Shown: positions 18,294 through 60,961, counted from the first letter of the stretch. The stretch: 64,000 bases of DNA from a virus (IMGVR_UViG_3300042878_001826:32001-96000), one strand, 5' to 3'. A program made the numbers and translations. The notes: generated by a model not told the origin, from the sequence alone.

Positions 18294-18956
18294 ATGAAAT
18301 ACTTAAAGAGATATAACGAAAATTTTAAAGGTTTTGCTAATGTTGATACTAGTCAAGAAGCTTTCAATAGATGTCAAAACTTATCAGAGGACGAATTATT
18401 AAAAATATTAAGAGAAAATTGTAAAAACTTTTCACTTAGTAATGACCTTTTATATAGAAATAAAGAATATTCTGGTGATTTTCAATTATTTAAACCATAT
18501 AAAAGAAGAGCAAACCCAGTAACTTTTCCAAAATTCTTTAATAGAATAGAAGACGATTCAAACTATCCCGTTAAAAGAAAGTTGTCTTTGATAGGTGGTA
18601 CGAATCCATCATTCATATCGGATTTGTTCCGGGATAAAATGGCAAGCAATATCAATAGCGATTCAGATTTTACAGTTTATATAGTTATACCATTTGATAA
18701 TTCTAAGATTGTTTTTTGTCCAGTTCCGGATTTATTATTTTTAGACGATAGAACAAAAGAAGAATATGTGAGTGGTGAGCCAGTTAGTGATAAAAACTTT
18801 GTGATGGTTGAATATACAAAAGACTTTAAAATTCCTGAGGAAGAGTTAAGTAAACTACCCGGTCATAAATCATCTCATTCGGGTTATGAGTTTTTTACAT
18901 CCAGTAATTGTTTACTAATTCATGAATCATATATAGATATTTTAAACCAAATTTAA
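18294..18956 (+). CDS. Hypothetical protein with capsid-targeting-like N-terminus (MKYLKRYNENF)
   Basis: Shared N-terminal motif; directly downstream of the neck gene. Confidence 0.7.
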   Translation: MKYLKRYNENFKGFANVDTSQEAFNRCQNLSEDELLKILRENCKNFSLSNDLLYRNKEYSGDFQLFKPYKRRANPVTFPKFFNRIEDDSNYPVKRKLSLIGGTNPSFISDLFRDKMASNINSDSDFTVYIVIPFDNSKIVFCPVPDLLFLDDRTKEEYVSGEPVSDKNFVMVEYTKDFKIPEEELSKLPGHKSSHSGYEFFTSSNCLLIHESYIDILNQI

Positions 18957-18970
18957 ATTAATAAAACCAG

Positions 18971-19222
18971 TCAATTGACTGGTTTTATTATTTCATCTAT
19001 TCTCATTTCTCTCCATTCGTCTAATGTAACGAAGTAGTTCGAAGCAGGCATGTATCTTTGTCCTTGATCGTTCATCACATCGACTATACTCATTCTATCA
19101 GGACCAAACTGATCCATAAGAACCGTATACTGCTTTCCGTAAGTAAATGTTTCCCAATTCTTTGTGATACAGACAATGATGTCGTCTCTTTTTAAGAGTT
19201 TAGTAGAAGATGTATTTTTCAT
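18971..19222 (-). CDS. Hypothetical protein with C-terminal REMRIDEII motif
   Basis: Coupled ORF carrying the shared C-terminal motif. Confidence 0.7.
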   Translation of the reverse strand: MKNTSSTKLLKRDDIIVCITKNWETFTYGKQYTVLMDQFGPDRMSIVDVMNDQGQRYMPASNYFVTLDEWREMRIDEIIKPVN

Positions 19223-19514
19223 CCTCTTTGATACAATAGATTGAGATAGGATAGATTCTCAAATCGTCGTTGCTTTCGTCAATCATAAATCTCATAGTAC
19301 CATCTATAATCTCAGGGTTGATTATCTTAACCGTTGCGTTGTGTAGTCCTTTAAGAACGGTATAAGAAACTTCATCCATTTCTTCAGTAAGAACCATATA
19401 GTTTTCTTTTCCCTGGATCTTTCCAGCCAATCCTTCGATGAAGTAAGACTTCTCGATTATTCCTCTGAGTGCATCTGTTGCAGAACACTCTACTTTAATT
19501 TCATGCTTTACCAT
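19200..19514 (-). CDS. Hypothetical protein
   Basis: 104 aa ORF. Confidence 0.65.
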   Translation of the reverse strand: MVKHEIKVECSATDALRGIIEKSYFIEGLAGKIQGKENYMVLTEEMDEVSYTVLKGLHNATVKIINPEIIDGTMRFMIDESNDDLRIYPISIYCIKEDEKYIFY

Positions 19515-19562
19515 TTCAAATCTTTTTGTTTATAGTCTTTGTATTGGTAAAATAGGAAAAGT

Positions 19563-19772
19563 TTACCCGTGATAAATGATGTTTATCGATGTTATCTCAG
19601 TATCATCACTTGGATAGATTTCTTTGAAGAGCTCATATCCTTCGTGTAAAGAATAGTTGTCAAATCCTTTGTTTATCTTTTTGATGATTGGGATAAGAGA
19701 ATTTATCTGCGTGTGTGTCACCTCAATCTTTTCACGACTCTCTTCTGTGTCTATTACTAAAAAACCTCTCAT
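19563..19772 (-). CDS. Hypothetical protein
   Basis: 69 aa ORF with AT-rich upstream element. Confidence 0.55.
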   Translation of the reverse strand: MRGFLVIDTEESREKIEVTHTQINSLIPIIKKINKGFDNYSLHEGYELFKEIYPSDDTEITSINIIYHG

Positions 19773-19808
19773 ATAAGTTCTTATTTTTACTTATATATAA
19801 GTTTTTTC

Positions 19809-20186
19809 TTACACCAATAGATTTTTTATTTCTTCAGAACCATCAGGATTCGCTGAATGTATTACGTATTCTGGGAATTTAATTTTTCTTTCATTACAAT
19901 AACTTAGCAAAAACTTAGCACAGTCTAATCCAGTATAAACACGATTCTCGTCAAGATTAAACCATTCTTCAAATGGTAGACTTTCTTTAAGTTCTACAAC
20001 ATCTGCTAAGTCATAATCAAATGTTACCAAATCTGGAACACCATTATCTTCTATCCATTTTATGAATTGACCATATGAACGAACTATTTCCCATTCTTCA
20101 TGGAATATACGACAATCTGCCCTATGATACATATAAGTAGCACAATCTCTGGGAATACGCCAATCGTCTAAAAATAATCGTTTCAT
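19809..20186 (-). CDS. Cyclic-phosphate-processing receiver-like domain protein
   Basis: LFLDDWRIP, WEIVRSY, TFDYDL, TGLDCAKFL, IHSANPDG; TATGTTTG box at 20198..20191. Confidence 0.78.
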   Translation of the reverse strand: MKRLFLDDWRIPRDCATYMYHRADCRIFHEEWEIVRSYGQFIKWIEDNGVPDLVTFDYDLADVVELKESLPFEEWFNLDENRVYTGLDCAKFLLSYCNERKIKFPEYVIHSANPDGSEEIKNLLV

Positions 20187-20226
20187 AGTGCAAACATAAG
20201 GATAAATTTTAATATATATATTATGA

Positions 20227-20311: not shown

Positions 20312-20375
20312 AATAAACTTTTTTTATTTAAACTTTAATAAAAATAATATATAAAACAAATAATAAAAAACAATT

Positions 20376-21442: not shown

Positions 21443-22753
21443 ATGACAGAAAAAGTAAACGAACGTGTGAGCTACAAAGTTAAAGACATCTCTCTTGCAG
21501 AATTTGGAAGAAAAGAGATTAGACTTGCAGAGGCGGAGATGCCAGGATTGATGGCAATACGTAAAGAATACGAAGAAAAACTTCCTTTAAAAGGAGCTAG
21601 AATCGCAGGATGTCTACATATGACTATCCAAACTGCAGTTCTGATTGAAACTCTTGTAGAATTAGGTGCAGAAGTATCTTGGAGTTCTTGTAATATTTTC
21701 TCTACACAAGATCACGCTGCGGCAGCAATCGCAGAAGCTGGAGTTCCAGTATATGCTTGGAAAGGAATGAATGAAGAAGAGTTTGATTGGTGTATCGAAC
21801 AAACAATCAACGCATTCGAAGGTGGTAAATACCTTAATATGATTTTAGATGACGGTGGTGATTTAACAAACTTAGTTTTTGACAAATATCCACATTTAGC
21901 AGAAGATATTAAAGGTTTATCTGAAGAAACTACAACAGGAGTTCACAGACTTTATGAAAGAATGAAAAACGGAACTCTTTTATTACCAGCAATCAATGTA
22001 AACGATTCTGTTACTAAATCTAAGTTTGACAACAAATACGGATGTAAAGAATCTTTAGTAGACTCTATTCGTAGAGCAACTGACGTTATGATGGCAGGTA
22101 AAGTTTCTGTTGTATGTGGATATGGTGATGTAGGAAAAGGTTCGGCGGCTTCTTTACAAGGTGCAGGTGCAAGAGTTATTGTTACTGAGATTGATCCTAT
22201 TTGTGCTTTACAAGCAGCAATGGATGGATTTGAAGTAAAAAAACTTGACAATGTAATCCATTTAGCAGACATCGTAGTTACTGCAACAGGAAACAAAGAC
22301 ATTATTAAAGGTAGACACTTTCTTGCGATGAAAGATAAGACTATCGTTTGTAATATTGGACACTTTGACAATGAGATTGATATGACTTGGTTAAATAAAA
22401 GCTATTCTAAGATTGAAGTTAAACCACAAGTTGATATCTATGATGTAGAAGGAAAAGACGTTATCGTATTGGCAGAAGGAAGACTTGTGAACTTAGGTTG
22501 TGCTACAGGACATCCATCATTCGTAATGTCAAACTCTTTCACAAACCAAGTTCTTGCACAGTTAGAACTTTGGAATAACTCTGATAAATATGAGAATAAA
22601 GTTTATACTTTACCTAAACATTTAGATGAGAAAGTAGCCAGACTTCACTTAGAGAAGATTGGTGTAGAATTAGATGAACTTTCTAAAGAACAGGCTGATT
22701 ATATTGGTGTTGCAGTAGAAGGACCATACAAAAACGACGAATACAGATACTAA
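21443..22753 (+). CDS. ahcY: S-adenosyl-L-homocysteine hydrolase
   Basis: [54 protein letters not shown]. Confidence 0.98.
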
Positions 22754-22754
22754 G

Positions 22755-23600
22755 ATGAACGTTCTTTCTTTATTTGATGGTATGTCTTGTGGACACATTG
22801 CTTTAGAAAAGCTTGGTATTGAAGTTGATCAATACTTTGCATCTGAGATAGAAGAAGCTTCTATTAAAGTAACTATGACAAACTATCCAAATACTATTCA
22901 AATAGGAGACGTTACTAAAGTGAATGGAAAAGATCTTCCAAAAATCGACTTGTTGATTGGAGGAAGTCCTTGTCAATCACTATCCAATGCTGGAAATGGC
23001 TCTGGTTTTGACGGTAAGAGTGGGTTGTTCTATGAATGGGTAAGACTTTTGAAAGAATGCCAACCAAAATACTTTATGCTTGAGAATGTAAAGATGAAGA
23101 AAGAATGGCAGGCGGTTATTACTGATATCTTAGGTGTAGAACCAATTCTTATCAATAGTAATCTTTTTTCCGCTCAGAATCGTCAGAGACTTTATTGGAC
23201 TAATATTCCAATGAATACTTTACCTGATGATAAAGAGATTTACATCGAAGACATATTAGAAAGTGGATTTGATAAAAAGTATTGGTTACCTGAAAAGAAC
23301 GCTGGATTGCTGAGCAAGAAAGTTGATATAACTGGTGCACCCGATATCTGTTGTATAGATGTTTACAACAAACGATATAAGAAGGATAGAAAAAGTCCTA
23401 CTTTAACACATCCTTGTCATAACTCTTTAAGACTTTTACAAGATGGTAAGTTCAGAAAGCTAACGCCCATTGAATGTGAGCGACTTCAAACTGTTCCGGA
23501 TGGATACACTAAAGGAGTTTCAGACACACATCGATATGCGATGCTTGGAAACGGCTGGACTGTAGATGTTATAGCACACATATTTAAAAACCTCGTTTAA
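22755..23600 (+). CDS. C5-cytosine DNA methyltransferase
   Basis: SLFDGM, GGSPCQ, LENV, QNRQRLYW, ECERLQ, LGNGW. Confidence 0.93.
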   Translation: MNVLSLFDGMSCGHIALEKLGIEVDQYFASEIEEASIKVTMTNYPNTIQIGDVTKVNGKDLPKIDLLIGGSPCQSLSNAGNGSGFDGKSGLFYEWVRLLKECQPKYFMLENVKMKKEWQAVITDILGVEPILINSNLFSAQNRQRLYWTNIPMNTLPDDKEIYIEDILESGFDKKYWLPEKNAGLLSKKVDITGAPDICCIDVYNKRYKKDRKSPTLTHPCHNSLRLLQDGKFRKLTPIECERLQTVPDGYTKGVSDTHRYAMLGNGWTVDVIAHIFKNLV

Positions 23601-23614
23601 GACGAGGTTTTTTT
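23586..23614 (+). terminator. Intrinsic terminator
   Basis: AAAAACCTCGT-TTAAG-ACGAGGTTTTTTT. Confidence 0.8.
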
Positions 23615-23639
23615 GTTTTTATAAAATAATATATAACGT

Positions 23640-23930
23640 ATGAAGATATTAAGATTTGAAGAGTTTGAAATAAACGAATCTCTACCTAATAAGAAAACGG
23701 TAAATCAGTTGAAAAAGGTTATGAAGCAGTCTGCTAAAACAGATATTGGAAATCGTATTTCGGACATGAACAAACAGGGAGCAAACCTACACTATATGCA
23801 AAATCCTATCGAGACTGGCATTGAATCGAAAGAAGACTATGACGAACACAACAAGAAATTCGTTTCTTCTTGGAACCTAAAAGGTATGTTAGGACCATTC
23901 AAAGGAGAAGACAATAAACAAAACAAATAA
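23640..23930 (+). CDS. Hypothetical protein with capsid-targeting-like N-terminus (MKILRFEEFEINES)
   Basis: Shared N-terminal motif; TAATATATA-N4-ATG. Confidence 0.72.
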   Translation: MKILRFEEFEINESLPNKKTVNQLKKVMKQSAKTDIGNRISDMNKQGANLHYMQNPIETGIESKEDYDEHNKKFVSSWNLKGMLGPFKGEDNKQNK

Positions 23931-23940
23931 ATATTTAAAA

Positions 23941-24702
23941 GTGATTTATTTAGAAAAATATTTGGATTTTATGAGTAAAGGAATATTAATACCTATTGGT
24001 GGGGCCGAAAGTAAAGGATCTAAAGTAGATATAGATAATAGTATTCTATCAGAAGTTATAAAAGTTTCTAAATTTGGAACGGATTCAAATATTATAATAA
24101 TTCCAACCGCATCATCTTATCAAAATGAAATAGATTCTGAATATAGAACTACTTTTGAAAGATTTGGATGTAAAAATATAAAAACATTATTCATATCATC
24201 AAAAGATGAAGTAGATTCTGCTGATAATTTGGATCTATTAAACAATTCAAATATTTTAATGTTTTCAGGTGGTAATCAATCAAAAATAAGTGAATGTTTT
24301 TTAGGTACTAAATTTTTAGAATGTTTAAAAAATAAATTTAACTCAGAACACTTTGTTTTGGTGGGTACATCAGCAGGAGCAATGTGTATGTCAGAAAACA
24401 TGATAACTGGCGGTGATAAAAATGTTAAATGTGGAATAGGTCTTTCTTTAATACCCGAATTTATAATTGATAGTCACTTTATCGAAAGAGATAGACTCGG
24501 TAGACTAGTTGAGGCAATTTCTATTTATCCAAATAGAATTGGTGTTGGTTTGGCAGAAGATACAGCAATCATAATAAAGAATGGTAAATTTAGGGTTATA
24601 GGATCTGGCAATGTTACCGTTTTCGATTCCAATGATTTGAAAAATGATTTAGAGTTTAGCGTTTTATCGTCAGGTGATACATTTAATATTAAAAATATAT
24701 AA
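23941..24702 (+). CDS. Cyanophycinase / peptidase S51 family protein
   Basis: IPIGGAE, IIPTAS, SGGNQ, catalytic GTSAGA, IDSHFIERDRLGRL, GLAEDT. Start may be GTG 23941 or ATG 23971. Confidence 0.88.
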   Translation: MIYLEKYLDFMSKGILIPIGGAESKGSKVDIDNSILSEVIKVSKFGTDSNIIIIPTASSYQNEIDSEYRTTFERFGCKNIKTLFISSKDEVDSADNLDLLNNSNILMFSGGNQSKISECFLGTKFLECLKNKFNSEHFVLVGTSAGAMCMSENMITGGDKNVKCGIGLSLIPEFIIDSHFIERDRLGRLVEAISIYPNRIGVGLAEDTAIIIKNGKFRVIGSGNVTVFDSNDLKNDLEFSVLSSGDTFNIKNI

Positions 24703-24707
24703 ATAAT

Positions 24708-25592
24708 ATGAAATATCTAAGCAAATACGAAAGTTTTTTAAATATCATAAAAGAGGCGGTATCCAATAGAAAGTTGATTCTTCTATCAGGACCTAGTGCT
24801 TCCGGAAAGTCATATCTGGCGGAAAAAACTTTAGGTGCAAAAAATTGGTACGAAGGAGATACTTCTGTAGCTTTGATTGGAACCGACAACTTTGGTGGTG
24901 AATCGAAGAAGACATTTCCAATGTTCTCAAAGTTGTTGAAGGAATTTGGTTGTCCGGAACTGGCTAAGTTTAAAGGAGACTGGTATTGGCTTATAGAGCT
25001 TTACAAAGATGACTACAAGAAATGGCAAGAAGTTGCATCAGATGAAGAGAAGAAGAAATACGAAGAACTAAAAAGAAAGCTTCCTTTTGAGAAGTCACAA
25101 GACGAAAGTAAAAACTTTCCACACTACGGAAAGGATGGTAGGATTTGTGGAATGGCTTGGACAGCACACCTGTTACCAGAATCAGTAACCACCATTATAT
25201 TCGACGACATATCAACAGGAATAGAAAACTATTTCAAAGTGCAAGACATTCTTGCTTTCACTCCATTGGATTGGATGATGAAGAACATCAAGTCTAGGGA
25301 AATCAATGTGAACGAAGAAGGAACTACCTTATATCAATATTGTGATTGGTTTATGGCAACAGACAAACCAGACTTAGATAATAAGATGTATACCGCAGAA
25401 ATACTGACTGAGCTTTTAACAGAAGCAGGTCATGACAATCCAAAAGAAATACTAATCAGATTAGGAGTAAAAGGAGAGTTAGAGAATGAATTTTATATAA
25501 CAACAAAACCAGGAGTTAAACCTGAAATTATTGTAAACACAAGAGACAAATCTACAGGAAGAGCAATCGGAATAGATGACTTATCGATATAA
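24708..25592 (+). CDS. P-loop NTPase/kinase-like protein with capsid-targeting-like N-terminus
   Basis: MKYLSKYESFL; Walker A GPSASGKS; IIFDD. Confidence 0.72.
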   Translation: MKYLSKYESFLNIIKEAVSNRKLILLSGPSASGKSYLAEKTLGAKNWYEGDTSVALIGTDNFGGESKKTFPMFSKLLKEFGCPELAKFKGDWYWLIELYKDDYKKWQEVASDEEKKKYEELKRKLPFEKSQDESKNFPHYGKDGRICGMAWTAHLLPESVTTIIFDDISTGIENYFKVQDILAFTPLDWMMKNIKSREINVNEEGTTLYQYCDWFMATDKPDLDNKMYTAEILTELLTEAGHDNPKEILIRLGVKGELENEFYITTKPGVKPEIIVNTRDKSTGRAIGIDDLSI

Positions 25593-25610
25593 AAAATTAA
25601 TATATAAACT

Positions 25611-25898
25611 ATGAAATATTTAAAAACATTTGAAGGCTACAACGATAAGAGTTTAGCAAGAGAGATTGCAGAAGACTTACTTCCACAACTACAAAAGATT
25701 AGAGACGAAAAAGGAATCTTTACCGTAAGTATGTTCGACAACTTCATGGAAGAAAGAAAAGGAGATATGAAATTGACTGACGAAGTTATTTCAGAACTTG
25801 TTGATTTAGGATTCCAATTCGACTATGATGATTCAGAAGACGAATATGACAGAGATCCTTTTGAAGGATACCCAGGAATGGAATACAGCTTAAACTAA
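25611..25898 (+). CDS. Acidic hypothetical protein with capsid-targeting-like N-terminus (MKYLKTFEGY)
   Basis: Shared N-terminal motif; TAATATATA-N4-ATG. Confidence 0.72.
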   Translation: MKYLKTFEGYNDKSLAREIAEDLLPQLQKIRDEKGIFTVSMFDNFMEERKGDMKLTDEVISELVDLGFQFDYDDSEDEYDRDPFEGYPGMEYSLN

Positions 25899-26100: not shown

Positions 26101-26171
26101 AGCTTTTCGTTTTTAGATTGTCTTACAAAGATAAGAATCTTTTTGAATGTGGTCACTATAATATATAGAAT

Positions 26172-26884: not shown

Positions 26885-27850
26885 ATGGCAAATGAAATGG
26901 ATGACCTATTTAATGGAGGTTTAGACAGCAAAATGGACTTCTTAAATGAAGTAAAATCAGGTAACAACAACGACGGAATCTACAGAGTGGATCTTAAATT
27001 GGCAAAAGACGAAAAACGTGGATGGAGATCTGTAGTAAGATTTTTACCTAACTTAACACAAGAAGGAAAGATTGGACAATCTGCGATTGAAAAAATCTCT
27101 CACTATGTAGACATCAAATCTGCGAAAGAATTAAGTGGATGGTTTGACTCAGCGAAAAACTTCAATGAGAAATGTGCATTGACAGATTTGTATTACCAAA
27201 TGCAAAACTCTAAAAATGCAGTATTGATTGAGAAATCAAAACAGTTAAAGTTTTCTAAAAAATACTACTCTTACGTTTTAGTATTAGAAGATGAGCAACA
27301 ACCAGAATTAGTTGGTAAGATCATGGTTTTCCAATACGGTAAAACTATTAAAGACAAAATCATGGCTGAGAAAAACGGAGAAATCTCTGGAGTACCTTGT
27401 AATGTTTTTGACTTATCAGCTGGTAAAGAATTCGTTCTTGTTGTTAAGAAAATCCAAACTGGTGATGAAACATACCCAGATTACAAAGCAAGTATGTTTA
27501 GAGGTGAAACAACTTCATTACCAATCTTCAAAGGTGGTGTTTTCAAAAACGCTCCATTAGAAAATGGTAAGATTGCACCAAACGTACAAGGTGTTGTTAA
27601 AAACTTCTTGTTAGAAAGAACTGTTGAGTTAGAAGATTTCGCTCCAAAGAAATTATCTGAAGAACAACAAGTTAAAATCACAGAGATTAGTAACTTCTTA
27701 ACTGGAAAAGCTAGTTCTTCTTTTTCAAGTGCGAAAGCTGAATCTAAGCCATCATCTGATGACTTCTCTTTTGAAGAAAACTTCTCAGAAAAAACACCAG
27801 CTACATCTACAGCATCTGCAGATGAAGATGATTTTTTCGCAGACATTTAA
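26885..27850 (+). CDS. T4 gp32-like single-stranded DNA-binding protein
   Basis: VVRFLP, YYSYVLVLED..PELVGKIMVFQYGKTIKDKI, FDLSAGKEFVL, acidic tail DEDDFFADI. Confidence 0.88.
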   Translation: MANEMDDLFNGGLDSKMDFLNEVKSGNNNDGIYRVDLKLAKDEKRGWRSVVRFLPNLTQEGKIGQSAIEKISHYVDIKSAKELSGWFDSAKNFNEKCALTDLYYQMQNSKNAVLIEKSKQLKFSKKYYSYVLVLEDEQQPELVGKIMVFQYGKTIKDKIMAEKNGEISGVPCNVFDLSAGKEFVLVVKKIQTGDETYPDYKASMFRGETTSLPIFKGGVFKNAPLENGKIAPNVQGVVKNFLLERTVELEDFAPKKLSEEQQVKITEISNFLTGKASSSFSSAKAESKPSSDDFSFEENFSEKTPATSTASADEDDFFADI

Positions 27851-27965: not shown

Positions 27966-28964
27966 ATGAGCTTTAACAACAGGACATTTAAAGACAACAG
28001 AACAGGAGAAGTGGTAAAAGTAATCGATTCGTTCGAAAACATCGCTATTCTTGAAAACAAAACTAAAATTGATACAAGACGACTTATGGACCCAAATCAT
28101 TTTACGGAGCAAGTTGATCCATCTGCATTTTTTAACACACAAAACGCATACAATGATTTATTTGAAAAAATAAAAACTATTCCGTCAGAAAACATTCCAG
28201 ATGAGAATGGTGAGGTTAGACCAAACGTAAATATCGACAACAACTATAGACCTCCTGTGGAAGATGATAGTGCTGTGATATATGGTAGTATCGATGATGA
28301 GAAAGAAGAGTTGGCTAGAAAATATGGAATAAATCCAGACAACACACAATCAGTTGCTAGACAGAATGAAGCATTTGCAAAGATATTAGAAGATAGTGAA
28401 GAACTTGATGAACTACCAACTATACCTGAACCAAGAAAGATTGTCAATGATGAACCACCGGTTCAAAGAGTTGAAATTGATAGAGATAATGGAACAGTTG
28501 TAGTAAATGGACAAAATTCAGAACCAGTCTATACAAAACCTAAAGAAGATCCTATCTATACAATGTTTAGAGGTGTAAAAAGATCTGTTGAGTTTAGCTT
28601 AGACCTAAAACTAGAAAACAAAATACCTAGATTAGACTTTATAGAAATGATGGAAGACTCTTATGAGAAAAGCATCATTGACTTTTTAGCAGACGAATTT
28701 ATGTCAGAGCTTTTTAAAGATCCTAAGTCTTTAAAAGAAAGTATCAAGGTAAAAATAAAAGATATGGTTTATGGAAAACCAGTAGCTAAGAGATCTACTA
28801 CCAAAAAACCTGTTGCTAAAAAACCTGTCGCTAAACCTGTCGCTAAACGAACAACACCTAAAACGGATATATCAGAAACGCCAACAGACAACATGCCTGG
28901 ACATAGAAATCCACCGGCAGCACCTAAAAAAACTAGGGTAAAAAAAGAAACAGAACAGCAATGA
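27966..28964 (+). CDS. Hypothetical protein with Lys/Pro-rich (PVAKK) basic tail
   Basis: 332 aa ORF; KPVAK repeats near the C-terminus. Confidence 0.78.
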   Translation: MSFNNRTFKDNRTGEVVKVIDSFENIAILENKTKIDTRRLMDPNHFTEQVDPSAFFNTQNAYNDLFEKIKTIPSENIPDENGEVRPNVNIDNNYRPPVEDDSAVIYGSIDDEKEELARKYGINPDNTQSVARQNEAFAKILEDSEELDELPTIPEPRKIVNDEPPVQRVEIDRDNGTVVVNGQNSEPVYTKPKEDPIYTMFRGVKRSVEFSLDLKLENKIPRLDFIEMMEDSYEKSIIDFLADEFMSELFKDPKSLKESIKVKIKDMVYGKPVAKRSTTKKPVAKKPVAKPVAKRTTPKTDISETPTDNMPGHRNPPAAPKKTRVKKETEQQ

Positions 28965-29371
28965 TAGAAGAAAAATTCCTTGTGGCTGCGGTCAATATTA
29001 AAAGAAGTTATTTAAAGCTGACCTCAAACTTAGATTTCTATAAAAGAAGAGCAGAACAAACTTTAGAAAAACTACAAGACGCATATAATCAGGTAGAAGA
29101 TCTAGAAGGTGAAATAGCCGAATTGAAAAAGAAAAAAGATACAAACGTAGATCCAAACCTGACATCAAAGGTTTTGGATATATTGGCAGAGATAGAACGA
29201 GAAGGAAATAAGATTGAAAAGTTTGTCGAACCTCTAAACAAAGAGATAGAAAAACTTGCGATGGAAGAACAAGAGCTTTATCGAGTAATAGTCGAATCAC
29301 ATCCGAATCTATCAGAAGAACAGATTGTGGAATCTGTAGGACTTAGATTGAAAAAAGAAGGCCTCTCATAA
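28961..29371 (+). CDS. Coiled-coil hypothetical protein
   Basis: Coupled ORF with heptad pattern; hairpin terminator at about 29360..29392. Confidence 0.75.
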   Translation: MIEEKFLVAAVNIKRSYLKLTSNLDFYKRRAEQTLEKLQDAYNQVEDLEGEIAELKKKKDTNVDPNLTSKVLDILAEIEREGNKIEKFVEPLNKEIEKLAMEEQELYRVIVESHPNLSEEQIVESVGLRLKKEGLS

Positions 29372-29422
29372 TAATGAGAGGTTTTCTTTTTTTATATATA
29401 ACAAAAAGATTTCAATTCTCAA

Positions 29423-31411
29423 ATGGCTAAAATTTCAAAGTATGTAAAGTTAGATAAAGACATCTTATTGGAGTACATATACAACGATGGAAACATGATC
29501 GGTGATCAGTATAAAATACTCGTGGATTCTAGAGACAACAGAAGGTCTTATATTGCAGGAGATTTAAGTTCTACAGGAAATACAAACATCAAAGGTCAGG
29601 AAAACCAGTTATTTAGATTGGATCAAGTATCAGGAAGATACGGTATTGTAAACCCAGAATATTACTCTTATCTACAATACAAAGAATTTTCAGCGAGTAT
29701 TCCGGTAAGACACGATACAATAAAGGTTCATATACCGATAAACTGGACGTTTGGTGAACATTTAGGATTCTATATAAGAGTATATGGACTTGATGAGACG
29801 AACACAAACCCATTTGAGATATCCAACTTTTACTTTGACATGACTAACGTGTCTCAGCAGTATCTTTTAAACTATTCTGCACCACCACTTCTTTTTCAGG
29901 AAAAACTTTGGGGTAAAAATATACAGATAGAAGTTCCTGCGATAAACGAACTCGCGGCACAAAAGACAGATGGTCTACCTAAAGAAAATAGTATAAACTC
30001 AAATCTTTCTAATGGTATAGGATTAAGTATAACTGCACCTATATTCATAGACTTCTATTTTATCGATGGTATCCAGAAAGTAAACGGAATAACCAGTTAT
30101 ATACTTGCAGGAAAAGTAACGACTACTATTCCACAAGCACCAGAGTTTGAAAGATTGGCACTTATGGTACAACATTCAACTCAAGGAGACTTCTTTGAGA
30201 TATACGGAACATACAACGACAACATAGCAGAGTTCAAAAAGTTCATAGATGATTCTGTGAAGATGGGACATAGATACTACGTTCAATACAACATAACAAC
30301 ATACGAACAAAACATTAGGGGTAAGACTACTACAGTTACAGTTCATGATGGATTCAACGAATCTATCGAGTATAGACCTATTATAAAGTTCTCTACAACG
30401 ACAGCCATAATAGATGTCGAGATGAGACTTGTAGACTCTGTGGACGACTCTTACATACTTAGAAGAGCATCTTATGGTATGTTACAAGATGAAGTTTCTA
30501 AATATAGTACTAACATGCTTAAAATAAATCTTGTGAATGCATCTAAACCTAAAGTTTATAATGTTAAGAATGCAATCGATGCTTCTTTATTAGGTGTTAC
30601 AAATGCAATGGGTAGAACTACAAAACCAAGAGGAAGAATAAACCAAACAACATCAAGTGGTGCAGGTTTCAATGTAGGAATTGCAGTGAATAAAGGTGAT
30701 TTTGGTAGTGGAAATGGATTTGGTGCTGGAGTAGGTGCTAATGGTGGTGCTGGATTTGGTGGTAATGGAAGTGGAAATGGTAACGGAAATGGTAACGGAA
30801 ATGGTTTAGGTGGACAAGTTAAGATAGAGACTATAAAAGTTCCATATCCAGTTCTTATAGACAGAGCAAATATAATCGGTAAGTCTGATAACTCTATATT
30901 TAATAACAATGTTTTCTACGGAAACGCAAAGATGCAAATAAAGATTTATCCATATGACAACATAATCAAATTCATAATAGCATCTGGTGATCCACTAAAA
31001 CCTGACTATTTAGATATGACAGGATTGGGAGAAATAAAGATGACATTTAGAAACGATAATACTACAGAAGAGTTTACTCTTTTGGCAGAATCTACTGATA
31101 TAAACTTAAAATTAGGTCAGGTTGTATTTAAAGTACCACAATCTAAAGTGATATCTATAAAGAAAATATACGAATCAGGAGTAAATCTATTCTATATCAT
31201 AGCGAGTAGTCAAGAAAACGTTTCTGTAGTATATACAGGACTATTCCAGATATTCGACAATCTTGCAAATGTTTCTACTCTTAATAAAGATTCTGTTACA
31301 GAAGGAAACAAACCATCTATTAACCAAGATCCTAATTTACCGAAAGAAACTGCGGTTGTTACTAGAAAACTTATTACTGGAGAAACAGTACCAACTAAAA
31401 AGGGAGGATAA
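29423..31411 (+). CDS. Putative virion structural protein with a Gly/Asn-rich linker
   Basis: 662 aa, beta-rich, GNGNGNG tract; TTATATATA upstream; precedes the tail-terminator-like gene. Confidence 0.6.
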   Translation: MAKISKYVKLDKDILLEYIYNDGNMIGDQYKILVDSRDNRRSYIAGDLSSTGNTNIKGQENQLFRLDQVSGRYGIVNPEYYSYLQYKEFSASIPVRHDTIKVHIPINWTFGEHLGFYIRVYGLDETNTNPFEISNFYFDMTNVSQQYLLNYSAPPLLFQEKLWGKNIQIEVPAINELAAQKTDGLPKENSINSNLSNGIGLSITAPIFIDFYFIDGIQKVNGITSYILAGKVTTTIPQAPEFERLALMVQHSTQGDFFEIYGTYNDNIAEFKKFIDDSVKMGHRYYVQYNITTYEQNIRGKTTTVTVHDGFNESIEYRPIIKFSTTTAIIDVEMRLVDSVDDSYILRRASYGMLQDEVSKYSTNMLKINLVNASKPKVYNVKNAIDASLLGVTNAMGRTTKPRGRINQTTSSGAGFNVGIAVNKGDFGSGNGFGAGVGANGGAGFGGNGSGNGNGNGNGNGLGGQVKIETIKVPYPVLIDRANIIGKSDNSIFNNNVFYGNAKMQIKIYPYDNIIKFIIASGDPLKPDYLDMTGLGEIKMTFRNDNTTEEFTLLAESTDINLKLGQVVFKVPQSKVISIKKIYESGVNLFYIIASSQENVSVVYTGLFQIFDNLANVSTLNKDSVTEGNKPSINQDPNLPKETAVVTRKLITGETVPTKKGG

Positions 31412-31426
31412 AAATAATAAAAAACG

Positions 31427-52504: not shown

Positions 52505-55210
52505 ATGGGAGTAAGAGGAATATACTACGGAGGAATAGTCTTGGATGGCTTGGTATTCCATATCGACGCAGCAAAACAAGAGTCTTACGCGAAGAGAGGA
52601 CTTAGATACATGCAGAACGGAAACAGCAACCTGTTCATAGATTTCGCGGATACTTCTAAAAGTCCATCTACGGAAAATGCCACAGGTACTATAATAAATG
52701 GTGTTACTTTTAGTAACTTTGCACCATATCATCTATCAACCACACCATATTGGCACAATCCTGCAACGACTGCATGGAAAGATAGTGCAGGAATAGGAAC
52801 TTTCTACGGAAACTTAGAGTTTGATGGTGTAAATGACTATGTGAGTTTTGGATCGACACCTGAGATGGATGGAATAAAGGATATAACGGTATCTGCGTGG
52901 TTCTATGTAAATAAATTTAAAAGTGGTGCTGTTCCTGCCGGTGGAACAACAAGTATCATAGCGTCTCGATACAACGGTGTTAATGGATGGGCTCTTGGTT
53001 ATAATAATCAAGGAGTGGTTTATTTTGATGGAAGAGAAAGTGGTGCAGAATATCTGTCAGTAACTGCAAGTATTCCAGTAAAGTCTTCAAATAGTACTAC
53101 GAATGGTGGTTGGTACAACGCGGTTGGAACAAAACAAGGAAGTGTTTGGAGTATATACGTTGCAGAAACCAATAGGTATATTGTCGATGGAGATAGAAGT
53201 ATATATGTAGCAGCGTACCAACAATCTCTTTTAGGTACTCGAACAATGGGAGTTGGAACTACTACATTCACAACAAACAATCTATATTTAGGTTGTGTTG
53301 TATTTGGCACACCTACTTTACACATGGATGGAAGGTTGATGTCTTTGTCGGTATACAACAGAGCACTATCTCTTAGTGAGATAAACCAAAACTACGATTC
53401 TGTAACAAAGAGAATAATAAAAAATTCTGTTCCTGCAAGTCCTGAGTTCATAACAAAATGGAATACAAGCATTCCAATAATGGAAACAGCAACCGGTATT
53501 ATAGAGATACCTATAAATCCCTCATATACCTACAACTACACAGTCGACTGGGGAGATGGAATAACTACTACCGGACACACAGGAAATGCGACACATACAT
53601 ATGCTACGAATGGTATATACACAGTAAAGATAACCGGAACTTTTCCTGCGATTTTTACATCTAACAATATTTATAAAGTTAGGATGATTGAGGTGAGTCA
53701 ATGGGGAACAAATGTTTGGCAAACAATGGAGAGTGCATTCTATGAATGTTCAAATATGAACGTGACTGCAACGGATGCACCTAATCTTTCTGTAGTTACA
53801 AATATGTTTGCAATGTTTAGAGGATGTATATCCATGAATGGTAATATATCGAGCTGGGACGTATCTAATGTTACGAGAATGATTGATATGTTCTCTCAAG
53901 CAACTTCGTTTAATCAGCCACTTAATTCTTGGAATGTTTCGGCGGTTACTGAAATGCAAGGTATGTTTGCAGGAGCAACGTCTTTTAATATGCCACTTTA
54001 TTCTTGGAATACGATGTCAGTAATAAGTATGGCGGGTATGTTCGGAAATGCGGTATTATTTAATCAGAATATATCTGCTTGGAATACCTCGGCTGTTACT
54101 GAAATGTCTAGTATGTTCGATGGGGCGACCGATTTCAATAATGGTGGACAACCGATGCTTACTAGCGGAAATAGCTGGAATACATCGGCGGTTACAGATA
54201 TGAGTACCATGTTCTATCAGGCCAGTTCTTTCAATGCGAACATAAGCAATTGGAATACTGCAAATGTGACTAATATGGGTGCTATGTTCTATGAGGCAAG
54301 TGTTTTTAATTCGAACATAAGTAGTTGGAATACTGTAAATGTGACTGCAATGTATAGTATGTTCTTTAACGCATATTCCTTCAACAGACCAATCGGTTCT
54401 TGGAACACTGCAAATGTGACTGGTATGGGTAGTATGTTCTGGGGTGCAACATTGTTCAATCAGAATATATCCGCTTGGAATACCGCTGCGGTTGTAGATA
54501 TGAGTGGTATGTTCTTTAGTTCTGCATTCAACAATGGTGGACAGCCAATGCCTACTAACGGAAATAGCTGGAATACATCGTCGGTTCAATATATGAGCAA
54601 TATGTTCAATCAAGCTACAAACTTCAATCAAAATATAGCAACATGGAACACTTTGAGTGTTATTTCTATGAGACAGATGTTCTATGGTGCTTCTGCTTTC
54701 AACAATGGTGGACAACCGATGCCGACTAATGGAAATAGTTGGAATACCACGAATGTTACAGATATGTGGGGTATGTTCTCTTACACTACAAACTTTAATC
54801 AAAACATAGCAACATGGAATACTGCAAATGTTACTACTATGGGTCCTATGTTCAACGGTAGTATATTCAACAATGGAGGACAACCAATACCAAGAAATGG
54901 AAGTAGCTGGAACACCGCATTGGTTACGGATATGAACTCAATGTTCTATATGAACGACGCGTTCAACCAAAACATAGGAACTTGGAATGTTTCTAACGTA
55001 ACAGACTTCACAAATTTCATGTCGACAAAAACTCCGACTACGTTATCAACTGCGAATCTTGATGCTATATATATAGGATGGGTTAGTAGACCAGTTAAAC
55101 CAAATATCATCATCTCGTTTGGAACGGCGAATAGAACTTCCGCGAGTACAAGTGCAAGAAACGCATTAATAGTTGCTAATTTATGGACTATAACAGATGG
55201 TGGAATATAA
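52505..55210 (+). CDS. LamG + PKD + DUF285/BspA-like repeat surface/adhesin protein
   Basis: LamG N-terminal half, VDWGDG/HTYA PKD-like module, about 15 repeats of WNTxxVTxMxxMFxxAxxFNxxI. Confidence 0.88.
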   Translation: MGVRGIYYGGIVLDGLVFHIDAAKQESYAKRGLRYMQNGNSNLFIDFADTSKSPSTENATGTIINGVTFSNFAPYHLSTTPYWHNPATTAWKDSAGIGTFYGNLEFDGVNDYVSFGSTPEMDGIKDITVSAWFYVNKFKSGAVPAGGTTSIIASRYNGVNGWALGYNNQGVVYFDGRESGAEYLSVTASIPVKSSNSTTNGGWYNAVGTKQGSVWSIYVAETNRYIVDGDRSIYVAAYQQSLLGTRTMGVGTTTFTTNNLYLGCVVFGTPTLHMDGRLMSLSVYNRALSLSEINQNYDSVTKRIIKNSVPASPEFITKWNTSIPIMETATGIIEIPINPSYTYNYTVDWGDGITTTGHTGNATHTYATNGIYTVKITGTFPAIFTSNNIYKVRMIEVSQWGTNVWQTMESAFYECSNMNVTATDAPNLSVVTNMFAMFRGCISMNGNISSWDVSNVTRMIDMFSQATSFNQPLNSWNVSAVTEMQGMFAGATSFNMPLYSWNTMSVISMAGMFGNAVLFNQNISAWNTSAVTEMSSMFDGATDFNNGGQPMLTSGNSWNTSAVTDMSTMFYQASSFNANISNWNTANVTNMGAMFYEASVFNSNISSWNTVNVTAMYSMFFNAYSFNRPIGSWNTANVTGMGSMFWGATLFNQNISAWNTAAVVDMSGMFFSSAFNNGGQPMPTNGNSWNTSSVQYMSNMFNQATNFNQNIATWNTLSVISMRQMFYGASAFNNGGQPMPTNGNSWNTTNVTDMWGMFSYTTNFNQNIATWNTANVTTMGPMFNGSIFNNGGQPIPRNGSSWNTALVTDMNSMFYMNDAFNQNIGTWNVSNVTDFTNFMSTKTPTTLSTANLDAIYIGWVSRPVKPNIIISFGTANRTSASTSARNALIVANLWTITDGGI
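53760..55020 (+). repeat. Tandem coding repeats (about 25 aa DUF285 units, four carrying an NNGGQP insertion)
   Basis: Recurrent TGGAATAC..ATGTTC and AACAATGGTGGACA units. Confidence 0.85.
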
Positions 55211-55220
55211 TATATAGTAT

Positions 55221-57005
55221 ATGATATCAAAATATAATAACTTTATTTTAGAAAAAGCTTTAAACGAGTCTACTTTATATGTTTCTCCTGAGATACTTAA
55301 AAGGCTACAAAAGATTGGTAGTGAAATATCAAGAGATTTAATAAATCAGTTAGGACAGGATATAAAGCCAGATGCAACATTCTTGGACGAAAGTGATAAA
55401 GAAGGTGAACTTACTTTCATCACGATAAGAAATGCAATCAAAAAACTAAGTGATATATATCATGGTGATCCAGATTTCGTTAAGAGTATTGGGGAGCCAG
55501 CAGTTGATACTTTTGCAATAAATATTTCAACCATGTTAAAGAACAACGAACCTGATTTCTGGACTCAATCAAGAAATCCTATAAAGATAGGTAGATTCAT
55601 AAGACAGGTATTTCCAGGTAAATATTCAGATGTTGATATTGAGAAGTTTGTTAACGCATTCAAAAGCTCCGATGAAAAGGATCTACAGAAGTTCATTCTA
55701 GTAGAAGGAGAAGATATTGCAAAATACTATTGGCACGAAAACTATAAAGAGATGGCAGGAGACTTAGGAAGATCTTGTATGGCAAGAAAGAAATTCTTCA
55801 ACATCTATACTCAAAATCCAGAAGTTTGTAGACTTTTAGTTCTTTTAGAAGATGACAAAGTGATAGGAAGGTCTCTTATATGGAAGTTAGATAGAAACAA
55901 CGGAGAAAGTGAGATTGAGTATTTCATGGATAGACAATATACCATAGAGCAATCAGATGTCATCAAGTTCACAAACTACGCAAAAGAAAACGGATGGGCA
56001 TATAAAACATACAACAACCACCATAGCTATTCAAACATAACCCATTTAGGAAGAGAGATGAACTGTGAGATAGTCGTAAAGATAGAAAAGAAGAATTATG
56101 ATGAGTATCCTTATATGGATACACTCAAAAGATTTAATCCAAAGACAGGAGAACTTTTCAACGATACGGATAAAGATGGAAATGAAGGTCAGTTTCTATT
56201 AGAAGATACTGATGGAGACTACACGGAAATAAAATCGGGAAAATGGTCTGAATATTATGATACAGAAATAGATGAAGATGATGCTGTATGGTCTAATGCA
56301 TATGGCGACTGGTTACCTGAGAACAGAGCAGTTCACATAGAAACAGGAAGAGGTAGAAGTAATACTGGATGGTTTCCAGAAGATGACGAAAACATCTACT
56401 ACTCGGAATGGGAAGATGAATATCTACACATAGACGACTGTAGATATTCTGAAGACAAAGACGAATACATACTGAGTAGAAATTCTATATCGGCTGCATA
56501 TAAAATATATGAAGATGGAAGTATAGAAACAAGCTGGTATCACCAAGACGACGACCATTGCATAGATATAGACAGAACGATGAGATGGTATGAAATACTA
56601 TCGGAAAAAAATTCTGATTGGGAAGATGTTTCTAGAATGAATCTAAAAATCACAGATAGATGGAGTACAGTATATAAAGAATTCTATCCTAAGATATTCA
56701 AAGTATTCTTATATAGAATGAAAAATTCAAAAGATAAAATCTATCTAAGCGTAAGAGATGCGAAGATACTTGGATTTGAATATGACAAAGATGATATGAT
56801 TGAGATAGATGACTTCGAATACCACAAGAGATTGAATGAAGCTTATGTAAATGATAAAAGTTTATTTGATACTTTAACAGAGAAATTGGAGAATGATCTT
56901 ATTCCGAATACAGAAAGAATCGCGGATGAAGGCGAAGAAGATATGAAACAAATGTATGTCAATAGGCTTCAAAGAGCTTGGGACAAAATGGGTTATGATA
57001 AATAA
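55221..57005 (+). CDS. 594 aa hypothetical protein with capsid-targeting-like N-terminus and acidic repeats
   Basis: MISKYNNFILEKALNES; IKIGRFI, LGRSCM, GRSLIW, FMDRQY, YPYMDT; TAATATATA-N4-ATG. Confidence 0.75.
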   Translation: MISKYNNFILEKALNESTLYVSPEILKRLQKIGSEISRDLINQLGQDIKPDATFLDESDKEGELTFITIRNAIKKLSDIYHGDPDFVKSIGEPAVDTFAINISTMLKNNEPDFWTQSRNPIKIGRFIRQVFPGKYSDVDIEKFVNAFKSSDEKDLQKFILVEGEDIAKYYWHENYKEMAGDLGRSCMARKKFFNIYTQNPEVCRLLVLLEDDKVIGRSLIWKLDRNNGESEIEYFMDRQYTIEQSDVIKFTNYAKENGWAYKTYNNHHSYSNITHLGREMNCEIVVKIEKKNYDEYPYMDTLKRFNPKTGELFNDTDKDGNEGQFLLEDTDGDYTEIKSGKWSEYYDTEIDEDDAVWSNAYGDWLPENRAVHIETGRGRSNTGWFPEDDENIYYSEWEDEYLHIDDCRYSEDKDEYILSRNSISAAYKIYEDGSIETSWYHQDDDHCIDIDRTMRWYEILSEKNSDWEDVSRMNLKITDRWSTVYKEFYPKIFKVFLYRMKNSKDKIYLSVRDAKILGFEYDKDDMIEIDDFEYHKRLNEAYVNDKSLFDTLTEKLENDLIPNTERIADEGEEDMKQMYVNRLQRAWDKMGYDK

Positions 57006-58461: not shown

Positions 58462-58462
58462 T

Positions 58463-58884: not shown

Positions 58885-58919
58885 AGTGTTTTATTTTAAA
58901 CAAAGATAAGGAATGTTTG

Positions 58920-59372
58920 CTAGTTTTGAAAGTTTCTAAGAAATTTCTTTTCGACTGGTCTCAAACCATCCATTCCGCACTGTCCGATTCTGTCCAGAAC
59001 GAGGTCCATGTCGAGGTTGTCGTAGATCCATTGGTCGAGCTTGGCCTTGTACGTGTTCCATCTGAAACGGTTTAAGGCGTTCACGAATGGCTTAAGCGAG
59101 CTTTCGACACAGAGCTTGTTGTCCAGAACTCTTTCTGAAACATCTTCTGTTGTGTGCTCGATAAGGTTGTTGTCCAATATCTTAGAATACTTCTCTATGT
59201 CTAACGGAGAGAATATAAGATAAAGAGTATAACGTTCCTTGTCGTTGAAGTCAAAGAACGAATCCGGGTTCATAGAAGATATAGCAAGTTTCTCTTGCTC
59301 GGAAAACCTTTCGTAGTCTTTGTCAAGCTCGAAAGAGGATTTGTTGAATTCTATTTTGTATACTCTGTTCAT
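58920..59372 (-). CDS. Hypothetical protein with DUF6576-like C-terminus
   Basis: MDLVLDRIGQCGMDGLRPVEKKFL resembles the ID.ILDKI..G..SL..EK.FL motif. Confidence 0.6.
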   Translation of the reverse strand: MNRVYKIEFNKSSFELDKDYERFSEQEKLAISSMNPDSFFDFNDKERYTLYLIFSPLDIEKYSKILDNNLIEHTTEDVSERVLDNKLCVESSLKPFVNALNRFRWNTYKAKLDQWIYDNLDMDLVLDRIGQCGMDGLRPVEKKFLRNFQN

Positions 59373-59411
59373 ATGGTATATATATTAAAAACATGTAACA
59401 TCATGATATAC

Positions 59412-60065
59412 TTATAACTCTATAATATCATTATGTTCTTGTCCTAAGATTTCGAAAGATTTCCAATCATATCCTGATTGTCTAGAATCTTTTGTCAATG
59501 CCACATAGTAAATAGTGCCACCTAAATCTGCTTTTATTACTTTTGGTATAAGGTGATTCTTTACTTTCTTAAACTTCTCACAAAGTTTTTCGTTTACAGC
59601 TTCTTCGATTATACCAAATACATGACGATCAAAAACAGACTTCATCTTCTCTAATCTTCTAAGCTCTTCACCAAGCTCGAATTGTTTTTGTTTGCTTAAA
59701 ATAAAGTTTATCTTTTCTTCTCTTGCGAGAACTTTTTCTTTAGAGAAAGTAACTCTGTCAGTAGAGTAAGCCCATCCAAAATGTTCGTCTTTTCTTATAG
59801 AGTATTTATAAGTAATTCCATCTCTATCAAAATAGACTTGCATAGATCCTTTTTCACCTGGATTCATACTATCAATAGGTTCGACTTCATTGATTATCTT
59901 ATCGATGAAATCTGAAAAGTCTTTTCTTCTCCTATCCGCTCTTTCTTTTGCACGAAGATAAAGTTCATGTAGCTCTTTGAAGCTCCAAGTCTTTGGATCT
60001 CTATCGAATTTACATTCAAACTCCCATCTTCTCAAAAAGTTTACTCCCAGGTTTTTATTGTACAT
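59412..60065 (-). CDS. Hypothetical protein with internal REEKINFIL motif
   Basis: 217 aa ORF. Confidence 0.7.
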   Translation of the reverse strand: MYNKNLGVNFLRRWEFECKFDRDPKTWSFKELHELYLRAKERADRRRKDFSDFIDKIINEVEPIDSMNPGEKGSMQVYFDRDGITYKYSIRKDEHFGWAYSTDRVTFSKEKVLAREEKINFILSKQKQFELGEELRRLEKMKSVFDRHVFGIIEEAVNEKLCEKFKKVKNHLIPKVIKADLGGTIYYVALTKDSRQSGYDWKSFEILGQEHNDIIEL

Positions 60066-60068
60066 TGC

Positions 60069-60311
60069 TTATTTTTTTAAAGTCTCGTCAATCTTGATGT
60101 CTCTCTCAATCGCTTCTTTATTTTGATGATACCAAATTCTAAAGTCACATCCGTAGTAGATGAACTCTTTGATAGTTTTACCATCTTCTTCATATTCAGC
60201 ACAACAAGTTTGACCAAACATGAATCTACTAAAACTTTCTTTCCAGATATCCGGAATTTCAGAATCTTTGATGTCTCTACCTTCTTCGTATATTTCTTTT
60301 AGATTTTTCAT
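60069..60311 (-). CDS. Hypothetical protein with C-terminal RDIKIDETL motif
   Basis: Tandem TAnnTTTG boxes at 60338..60331 and 60358..60351. Confidence 0.7.
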   Translation of the reverse strand: MKNLKEIYEEGRDIKDSEIPDIWKESFSRFMFGQTCCAEYEEDGKTIKEFIYYGCDFRIWYHQNKEAIERDIKIDETLKK

Positions 60312-60358
60312 GTACTTTTCTTTTAGTCTACAAATATACGGATTTTATTTCAAAGATA

Positions 60359-60961
60359 TTATCTTTTTATGAAATTGTCTAATATTATGAACGTGTCTCT
60401 TTTATTTTCTGGATGAAAAAGAAGTCCGTATCTTTTTTTAGAATCACTTAGTATTGCAGCAATCTTTCCGTTTATTGTTGCATGAACTTCAAATTCTTTA
60501 GGACAATCGATAGGATTATCGTTGAACGCAAACGAAACAGGAGTTGAATCTAAATCTATTCCTTCAAAAAGCCAATGTTCTTTTATGTTGCCTAATATAG
60601 ATTCTCCTATAGTAAGTTCAGTTCCACTATTTACCTTTGCACCATAGTGTATTGCCATGGTCTGCATACCAAAACATATACCTAATAAAGGACAGTCTAG
60701 TTTATCCATTGCCAACGCGGCCAAAGAATAGTCGTCTTTGTTTGCTCTATAGTCAGATCCGGTTGATATAGCACATAATATTTTTTCTGCACCCAAAATT
60801 TCATTTAGCTTCGCCACATCGTCCACTACAATGTGTTCGATATTCCTATCTTTTAGATAAAGAACTATGTTTTCTAAATACTTTTTTTCAGGTGGTTTAC
60901 TGTTATCTATTACTAACACCTTTCCTATATCAAAACTTTCAAATCTTTTTATCCATCTCAT
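60359..60961 (-). CDS. Class I glutamine amidotransferase-like protein with capsid-targeting-like N-terminus
   Basis: LLGICFGMQ nucleophile elbow, FHPE; starts MRWIKRFESF; TAATATATA-N4-ATG. Confidence 0.85.
   Translation of the reverse strand: MRWIKRFESFDIGKVLVIDNSKPPEKKYLENIVLYLKDRNIEHIVVDDVAKLNEILGAEKILCAISTGSDYRANKDDYSLAALAMDKLDCPLLGICFGMQTMAIHYGAKVNSGTELTIGESILGNIKEHWLFEGIDLDSTPVSFAFNDNPIDCPKEFEVHATINGKIAAILSDSKKRYGLLFHPENKRDTFIILDNFIKR

Follow-up and report, generated by a model that had tools for sequence, protein, structure and literature searches.

A short N-terminal peptide is common to ten otherwise unrelated genes located between positions 18,294 and 60,961 of a 64,000-nucleotide stretch of viral DNA (referred to below as the window), which comprises bases 32001–96000 of one linear, 150,251-bp virus contig from IMG/VR (IMGVR_UViG_3300042878_001826; GC content of about 33%; completeness of 61% according to CheckV). 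Bioinformatics analysis demonstrated that this peptide, hereafter called the tag, is under purifying selection, occurs almost only at N-termini, is modular and lies outside the fold of the proteins that carry it, and that tagged or untagged status is stable between orthologues. The tag is probably a propeptide that, in the manner of the capsid targeting sequence (CTS) of bacteriophage T4, would dock proteins onto the prohead, and we give this reading a probability of roughly 0.55.

The phage DNA nearest to that of the contig belongs to the uncultured huge phages LR745206.1 (634 kb) and LR756502.1 (642 kb), and capsid-protein searches group the clade of these two phages with other LR7565xx megaphages and the Lak phages. 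More distant cultured relatives, likewise recovered by capsid-protein searches, are the Tenacibaculum phages PTm1, PTm5 and pT24, Sphingomonas phage PAU, as well as Flavobacterium and Chryseobacterium phages. Since the closest cellular homologues of the S51 peptidase encoded at 23941–24702 are cyanophycinases of Flavobacteriaceae (45–48% identity), the sequence points to a flavobacterial host. A cyanophycinase-like S51 peptidase is an unusual auxiliary gene for a phage.

In total, 203 open reading frames (ORFs) were called on the contig by a crude custom ORF caller. The tag was searched for with two regular expressions derived from the same data, and three checks independent of these expressions were run beside them. 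The tag is a basic, aromatic peptide of 8–16 residues, which exists in two forms: M-K-[YH]-L-K-x-[FY]-[NE]-E (form A) and M-[KI]-I-x-[KR]-[FYW]-x-x-[FY]-[ILV]-x-E (form B). The regular expressions matched 17 of the 203 called N-termini and, in two further cases, an in-frame ATG that is probably the real start codon, while column-preserving shuffles led to the expectation of 0.26 matches on average, with a maximum of four across 2000 trials. Altogether, 20–21 of the 203 ORFs are counted as tagged. A six-frame scan of the contig, covering 5334 ATGs, yielded 21 tag matches, 19 of which are gene starts. The tag family was also recovered, on the contig and in LR745206.1, by a motif-free neighbour count in a reduced amino acid alphabet; the same count detected no recurrent N-terminal tag in the AT-rich phage PTm1, used as a negative control. 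A degenerate DNA pattern gave six matches on the contig and 15 in LR745206.1 (reversed control, 0), and the tag core was N-terminal in 54 of its 56 occurrences and internal in the other two. Beyond these genomes, the strict form A pattern matched 32 stretches, spread over 29 IMG/VR contigs, the length of which is in many cases 100–600 kb.

An earlier note on this DNA had reported a similar peptide at the start of about 10 ORFs. The count is right for the window, all of the ten N-termini translate as given there, nine of them being clear, and the family is real, but its two forms had not been told apart. The same note had named AT-rich 5' codon bias as a possible cause of the motif. This cause is rejected by the column shuffles and by the codons of the tags, which vary synonymously (AAA/AAG, AGA/AGG, five Leu codons, TTT/TTC, TAT/TAC), while Phe, Tyr and Trp interchange at position 7. 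Because the codons vary in this way while the aromatic residues interchange, selection acts on the peptide, and the conserved object is a peptide and not a nucleotide element or a codon-bias effect.

The add-on nature of the tag is well seen in the 2H phosphoesterase encoded in the window, form B being kept in all of the 120 orthologues found. In an alignment of 57 of these orthologues (56–95% identical), the tag residues M1, Y6, F9 and E12 do not vary, only Ile, Leu, Val or Met is found at the aliphatic position, and the tag is better conserved than the enzyme body. AlphaFold assigned a predicted local distance difference test (pLDDT) score of <50 to residues 1–15, with the fold beginning at about residue 18. 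Strict conservation of a segment predicted not to fold is as expected for a short motif that would be read by another protein. Most homologues of the class-I glutamine amidotransferase (GATase) have a linker of 5–25 residues between the tag and the point at which the conserved domain begins; four homologues lack the tag and start directly at the domain, and one tagless copy sits mid-operon on a phage-like contig. The Flavobacteriaceae cyanophycinases also start directly at the domain, without any extension, which is the outcome sought in a check that the earlier note had proposed, namely whether cellular homologues lack the tag. In phage copies of the S51 peptidase, the domain is preceded by a short degenerate tag or by a complete form A tag with a long linker; three versions of the tag occur on this enzyme in phages. 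The copy in the window is the tenth and least clear of the tagged starts: its GTG-started extension is weak on the contig, but in most phage orthologues a conserved extension that starts with ATG is kept.

Tag status was also followed between genomes. Twelve tagged proteins of the contig have a homologue in LR745206.1, and 11 of the 12 homologues start with the tag (eight recognised by the regular expressions, and three tag-like starts judged by eye), the twelfth homologue being a partial match. No tagged LR745206.1 homologue was found for any protein that is untagged on the contig. The form of the tag and the length of the body can nevertheless change, as the body of the 96-aa protein encoded at 23640–23930, headed by form B, matches the C-terminal part of a 211-aa LR745206.1 protein that has form A and about 115 extra residues. 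The earlier description of a portable N-terminal tag is thus upheld by the unrelated bodies, the position outside the folded domain, the absence from cellular homologues and the selection on the peptide.

The T4 CTS has the sequence MKTYQEFIAE (10.1101/2021.01.19.427310). The first ten residues of the T4 protein IPIII suffice for packaging, and mutagenesis assigned residues 4 and 7 of the CTS to targeting and residues 8 and 10 to processing, the T4 protease gp21 cleaving after Glu in the L/I-x-E context (PMC9026906). Similar to the T4 CTS, the tag is an N-terminal peptide of about ten residues with an M-K start that is common to unrelated proteins, and its Glu is followed by a small residue, which fits cutting C-terminal to Glu. 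Form B repeats the spacing of the aromatic, aromatic, aliphatic and Glu residues of the T4 sequence (Y6, F9, [ILV]10, E12), shifted by two residues, whereas form A shows only a looser fit (aliphatic at 4, aromatic at 7, Glu at 8 or 9). The pattern [hydrophobic]-x-E-[S/A/N/G] is present within residues 6–20 of 59% of the tagged versus 9% of the untagged proteins, with Glu peaks at residues 9, 11 and 12, and candidate Glu cut sites were recognised in eight of the ten tagged window proteins. A comparison can also be drawn with the phiKZ-like giant phages (phiKZ, 201phi2-1, SPN3US), which are likewise large phages with many internal head proteins. Their head and ejection propeptides are cut after Glu at a three-residue motif by a gp21-like protease, and the paralogues gp53 and gp54 of SPN3US have common conserved N-termini (PMC5694885, PMC9026906). 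In contrast to the stereotyped tag of 8–16 residues described here, phiKZ-like propeptides are mostly >100 residues long, are cut at S/A-x-E and have no short consensus across families.

A sister tag was identified in the cultured phage PAU, 18 genes of which start with M-K-[TS]-[LI]-x-x-L-[YF]-E (control, 0). Ten of the 18 genes are located in the head module, close to those for the portal, protease, scaffold and capsid proteins, and the sister tag heads the scaffold protein gp152 as well as gp142, gp154 and gp199, which are labelled 'internal capsid protein' in GenBank; unlike gp142 and gp154, gp199 is encoded at a great distance from the head genes. When residues 1–16 were masked, eleven tagged PAU proteins, including the scaffold and the three labelled proteins, showed no mutual similarity. 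Since there is no similarity beyond residue 16, the labels were not copied between paralogues. Many PAU tags continue K-L-N-E-[AS], the same ending as in form B of the contig (L-N-E-[SA]). According to N-terminal sequencing, the PAU capsid protein is shortened from 585 to 520 residues, a loss of about 65 (PMC5646251), and the cut was placed here at or beside L-M-E64, an L-x-E site. The sister tag resembles the tag of the contig in its M-K start, the aliphatic residue at 4, the hydrophobic or aromatic residues at 7–8 and the Glu at 9, and it also heads unrelated small proteins; PAU has a T4-type head, and its host is reported to be a member of Bacteroidota (Sphingomonas/Sphingobacterium phage). 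It differs in that Lys and Arg are replaced by Thr and Gln, and most of the tagged PAU genes are found in the head module. In the literature library searched, no publication was found that describes the PAU tag, the proteome of PAU virions or capsid targeting in huge phages, and the MA9V-1 paper contains only a sodium dodecyl sulfate polyacrylamide gel without protein identifications.

In the whole genome of LR745206.1, a position matrix assigned the N-termini of 97 ORFs to form A and those of 10 to form B, out of a total of 920 ORFs (11.6%), while 3–6 of 3075 internal Met positions matched in the control. Tags were also found in excess of controls in LR756502.1 (84 vs. 2), LR756504.1 (34 vs. 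3) and LR756500.1 (15 vs. 0); a pattern search did not find the contig version of the tag in the 735-kb LR756501.1 or in Lak-B5. LR745206.1 has a head module with a portal-sized gene, a 707-residue protease-scaffold fusion (198546–200669) and a Gp23-type capsid protein (Pfam Gp23, E-value 7e-26), and a tagged acidic protein of 169 residues is encoded two genes beyond the capsid gene. Over its first 250 residues, the fusion shows 32% identity with the capsid maturation protease of PAU (E-value 3e-22); a comparison of the protease domain with PDB sequences gave no useful match. The scaffold part contains ten tandem repeats Y-[ST]-E-Y-[ILV]-[AS]-E-[NH], each of which closely resembles the T4 CTS core and could be a site for the protease. 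It is in relatives of the contig phage only that sequence comparison shows a T4-type head module, with portal, protease, scaffold and Gp23 capsid genes, and a sister tag that heads the scaffold and proteins annotated as internal to the capsid.

The tagged proteins are soluble and hydrophilic, transmembrane-like segments being present in 3 of 119 tagged versus 87 of 801 untagged proteins. About seven of the 60 largest tagged LR745206.1 proteins have a Pfam domain (GH16, NUDIX, M15 peptidase, methyltransferase, Toprim-like and two DUFs), and none of the 60 matched a core replication or structural family; that the tagged proteins are mostly without a domain fits accessory cargo. Part of the tagged set forms a paralogue family with a common segment after the tag. 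In LR756502.1, tandem arrays of up to nine tagged genes for proteins of about 150 residues were found at 11122–15638, 21672–25108, 28053–32285 and 418463–425568, which recall the hypervariable internal-protein loci of T-even phages.

The mechanism that we propose would run as follows. The tag, a helix-prone basic and aromatic peptide joined to the protein by a flexible linker, would attach nascent cargo to the scaffolding core (in relatives, a protease-scaffold fusion) during prohead assembly. A prohead protease of the T4 gp21 type (S77) would then cut after the conserved Glu in the context [F/I/L/V]-x-E followed by [S/A/N], whereupon the tag peptide would be lost and the mature protein retained in the head. 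The steps that we infer are core binding, cleavage, retention of the product in the head and, most of all, its ejection into the host as an effector. Such a device is known in kind from T4; new are its scale, the coexistence of two forms, the enzyme cargo and the host group. Compared with the handful of tagged proteins in T4, there are about 20 on the contig and about 107 in LR745206.1, and the tagged genes are scattered over the genome.

Six of the tagged genes in the window are directly preceded by the element AATATATA (Table 1), which the earlier note had called late-type. The element occurs 47 times on the contig; about 22 of these copies end 4–6 nt before an ATG, and 10 of the genes concerned are tagged, while other copies are located 18–29 nt upstream, for example, of nrdB, a sensor kinase gene and large structural-like genes. 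In LR745206.1, AATATATA was found within 37 nt of 47 of the 107 tagged versus 117 of the 813 untagged genes. It lies 3–7 nt before the ATG of 80 genes, 32 of which are tagged (as against 11.6% of all genes), and 19–31 nt before the portal, protease-scaffold and capsid genes. The close spacing between AATATATA and the ATG suggests leaderless or near-leaderless mRNAs. The position 4–6 nt before six ATGs was confirmed, but the designation of AATATATA as a late promoter had to be rejected: the element precedes head genes in the relative, but also nrdB and the sensor kinase gene on the contig.

Several observations weigh against docking onto the prohead as the function of the tag. Judging from the genes that it precedes, AATATATA is not specific to late genes. 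Searches of the contig, which is 61% complete, for an S77 protease and a Gp23 capsid protein gave only sub-threshold fragments, and the protease of LR745206.1 itself scores 20 bits with Pfam S77, below the cut-off of 27. No publication was found on what the 'internal capsid protein' labels of PAU rest on. PTm1 is cultured and has the same kind of head module and a related capsid protein, yet it lacks the tag. About 12% of the proteome is tagged, far above the handful of T4. The tagged proteins are acidic (median isoelectric point of 4.9 vs. 5.7–6.1), whereas T4 internal proteins are basic; the core components of T4, which are degraded and expelled at maturation, are acidic, and in this respect the tagged proteins would resemble them rather than injected cargo. 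In form A, the residue at P3 is mostly Phe, and not Leu or Ile as in T4, and no hydrophobic-x-Glu site is present in the tags of the GATase, in which Glu8 is preceded by R-F with no hydrophobic residue at P3, and of the S51 peptidase. Since PTm1 has its head module without the tag, the tag is an accessory feature, not required for a T4-type head, as internal proteins are accessory in T4. The T4 head holds about 1000 copies of internal proteins and 40 copies of Alt (PMC5694885). Given such copy numbers, the large number of tagged proteins is not a problem by itself: it is plausible, by inference, that a head for about four times more DNA than that of T4 could hold about 100 protein species at tens of copies each.

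If tagged proteins are packaged, the question arises of what they would do, and here the earlier note had proposed an effector set that is injected with the DNA. We consider such a set possible but rather doubtful. The same tentative standing is given to the wider claim that the tag marks the whole packaged proteome across the clade (about 100 proteins per 630-kb genome), and that enzymes would be loaded and injected as a takeover or counter-defence kit including a 2H/Acb1-like phosphodiesterase, a cyanophycinase-like peptidase, a glutamine amidotransferase and cell-wall hydrolases. Alt of T4 is a precedent for enzyme cargo. The enzyme identities suggested in the earlier note were borne out in part. 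The GATase and the S51 peptidase have Pfam matches (Table 1). With the Pfam Acb1 model (PF23474), the phosphoesterase scores 29.1 bits (cut-off, 27), but its score with the general model 2_5_RNA_ligase2 is higher (E-value 6e-10), and Foldseek ranked Usb1, LigT and Acb1 about equally; thus, 'Acb1-like' is fair by Pfam, while the predicted fold is that of a generic 2H phosphoesterase. The supposed P-loop kinase (24708) is P-loop NTPase-like, but weakly so, its match to Pfam Zeta_toxin (E-value 0.008) being below the cut-off.

Other explanations of the tag were weighed against docking onto the prohead. The tag might be read by a different machine, namely as a recruitment signal for Hsp70, as a degron for the ATP-dependent protease encoded at 42604–44730 on the minus strand, or as a localisation signal within the infected cell. 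DnaK generally prefers basic segments with large hydrophobic residues, to which the tag would be suited; DnaK-like and DnaJ-like proteins as well as the protease are encoded on the contig, the cargo has an acidic character, and a tag that serves regulation or folding would more easily account for a share of about 12% of the proteome. However, such a machine would leave the invariant Glu with its small neighbour and the match to the T4 CTS determinants unexplained, together with the sister tag on the PAU scaffold and annotated internal capsid proteins and the ten tagged genes in the PAU head module, and we regard it as fairly unlikely. It is less likely still that the tag does target the prohead but that the tagged proteins are mostly expendable filler of the core or scaffold, degraded or expelled at maturation. 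In T4, core proteins are cut into fragments and then removed (PMC9026906), and filler would suit proteins that are acidic, hydrophilic, mostly small and without a known domain, the tandem arrays of LR756502.1, and the PAU scaffold that is itself tagged. It makes little sense for folded enzymes (the 2H phosphoesterase, GATase and S51 peptidase, and in LR745206.1 the GH16, M15, NUDIX and methyltransferase proteins), nor does it agree with the annotation of the tagged gp142, gp154 and gp199 of PAU as internal capsid proteins.

The enrichment of tagged genes behind close copies of AATATATA would also be expected if the conserved start were a nucleic acid or translation feature, for instance one that promotes efficient initiation on leaderless or near-leaderless mRNAs. 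This is very improbable, as about half of the tagged genes lack such a promoter context, the PAU tags stand in operon contexts, residue classes are kept while synonymous codons vary, and conservation reaches residue 12 with invariant Tyr, Phe and Glu. Simple paralogy, in which all tagged genes would stem from a single expanded family and the shared start would have no role of its own, would account for the part of the tagged set that is paralogous beyond the tag and for the tandem arrays; it is hardly credible for a tag that heads unrelated folds whose cellular homologues lack it, that is more conserved than the enzyme body, and that in PAU is followed by proteins dissimilar past residue 16.

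The tagged genes of the window are listed in Table 1; most of the tagged proteins have no Pfam or PHROGs match.

Table 1. Genes of the window that start with the tag. Positions are counted from the first nucleotide of the window; in candidate cut sites, the slash marks the predicted cut; distances are those between the end of the element and the ATG.
Product	Position	Strand	Tag	Candidate cut site	AATATATA element	Remarks
220-aa protein	18294..18956	+	form A, residues 1–9	Y-N-E/N		no known domain
96-aa protein	23640..23930	+	form B, residues 1–13	I-N-E/S	23628–23635, 4 nt	
S51 peptidase (cyanophycinase-like), 253 aa	23941..24702	+	degenerate 10-residue tag-like extension	no Glu cut site		GTG start; Pfam S51, E-value 2e-21
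P-loop NTPase-like protein (weak), 294 aa	24708..25592	+	form A	I-K-E/A, residue 16	24694–24701, 6 nt	
95-aa protein	25611..25898	+	form A		25599–25606, 4 nt	no domain; LR745206.1 orthologue tagged
2H phosphoesterase (Acb1/LigT-like), 176 aa	26172..26702	+	form B, residues 1–12	L-N-E/S	26160–26167, 4 nt	
Mini-protein, 66 aa	46968..47168	+	form A	F-N-E/S		
Mini-protein, 60 aa	47177..47359	+	form A	F-N-E/A		
594-aa protein	55221..57005	+	form B	I-L-E/K and L-N-E/S	55209–55216, 4 nt	no domain; 656-aa LR745206.1 orthologue tagged
Class-I glutamine amidotransferase (GATase), 200 aa	60359..60961	−	form A, residues 1–10		60966–60973, 4 nt	Pfam GATase, E-value 2e-14

Also encoded in the window are a T4 gp32-like single-strand DNA-binding protein (26885–27850; PHROG 224) and the above-mentioned ATP-dependent protease, a protein of 708 residues (PHROG 4871); the DnaK-like and DnaJ-like proteins of the contig were recognised by their N-termini. 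Outside the window, at 107594–108343 of the contig (minus strand), a tagged 249-residue protein ends in the tag-core-like sequence S-L-K-R-F-N-N-F, directly after which the tag of the next gene begins, in a tandem array of five tagged genes. This end may be a recombination scar of tag-mediated gene shuffling. A second, C-terminal tag, R-[DE]-x-K-[LI]-x-x-[LI]-[LG], was observed contig-wide on about 30 small proteins, for example those encoded by the minus-strand genes ending at 18971, 48890 and 50155 of the window; the C-terminally and N-terminally tagged protein sets have zero overlap.

If the tag is a capsid label, the proteins packaged in the heads of very large uncultured phages could be listed from sequence only, a task that normally needs purified virions and mass spectrometry. 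This leads to a testable prediction for PAU, which is in culture, namely that its 18 tagged proteins would be present in virions with their N-termini removed after Glu9 or Glu14. If the tag is such a label, and if the cargo is also injected, the injected arsenal of uncultivated phages would become readable from their genomes. As a capsid label, the tag would further mean that a T4 mechanism has been scaled from a handful of proteins to about a tenth of the proteome and put to use for enzymes, and a short portable tag would be at hand for loading foreign proteins into phages of Bacteroidota.

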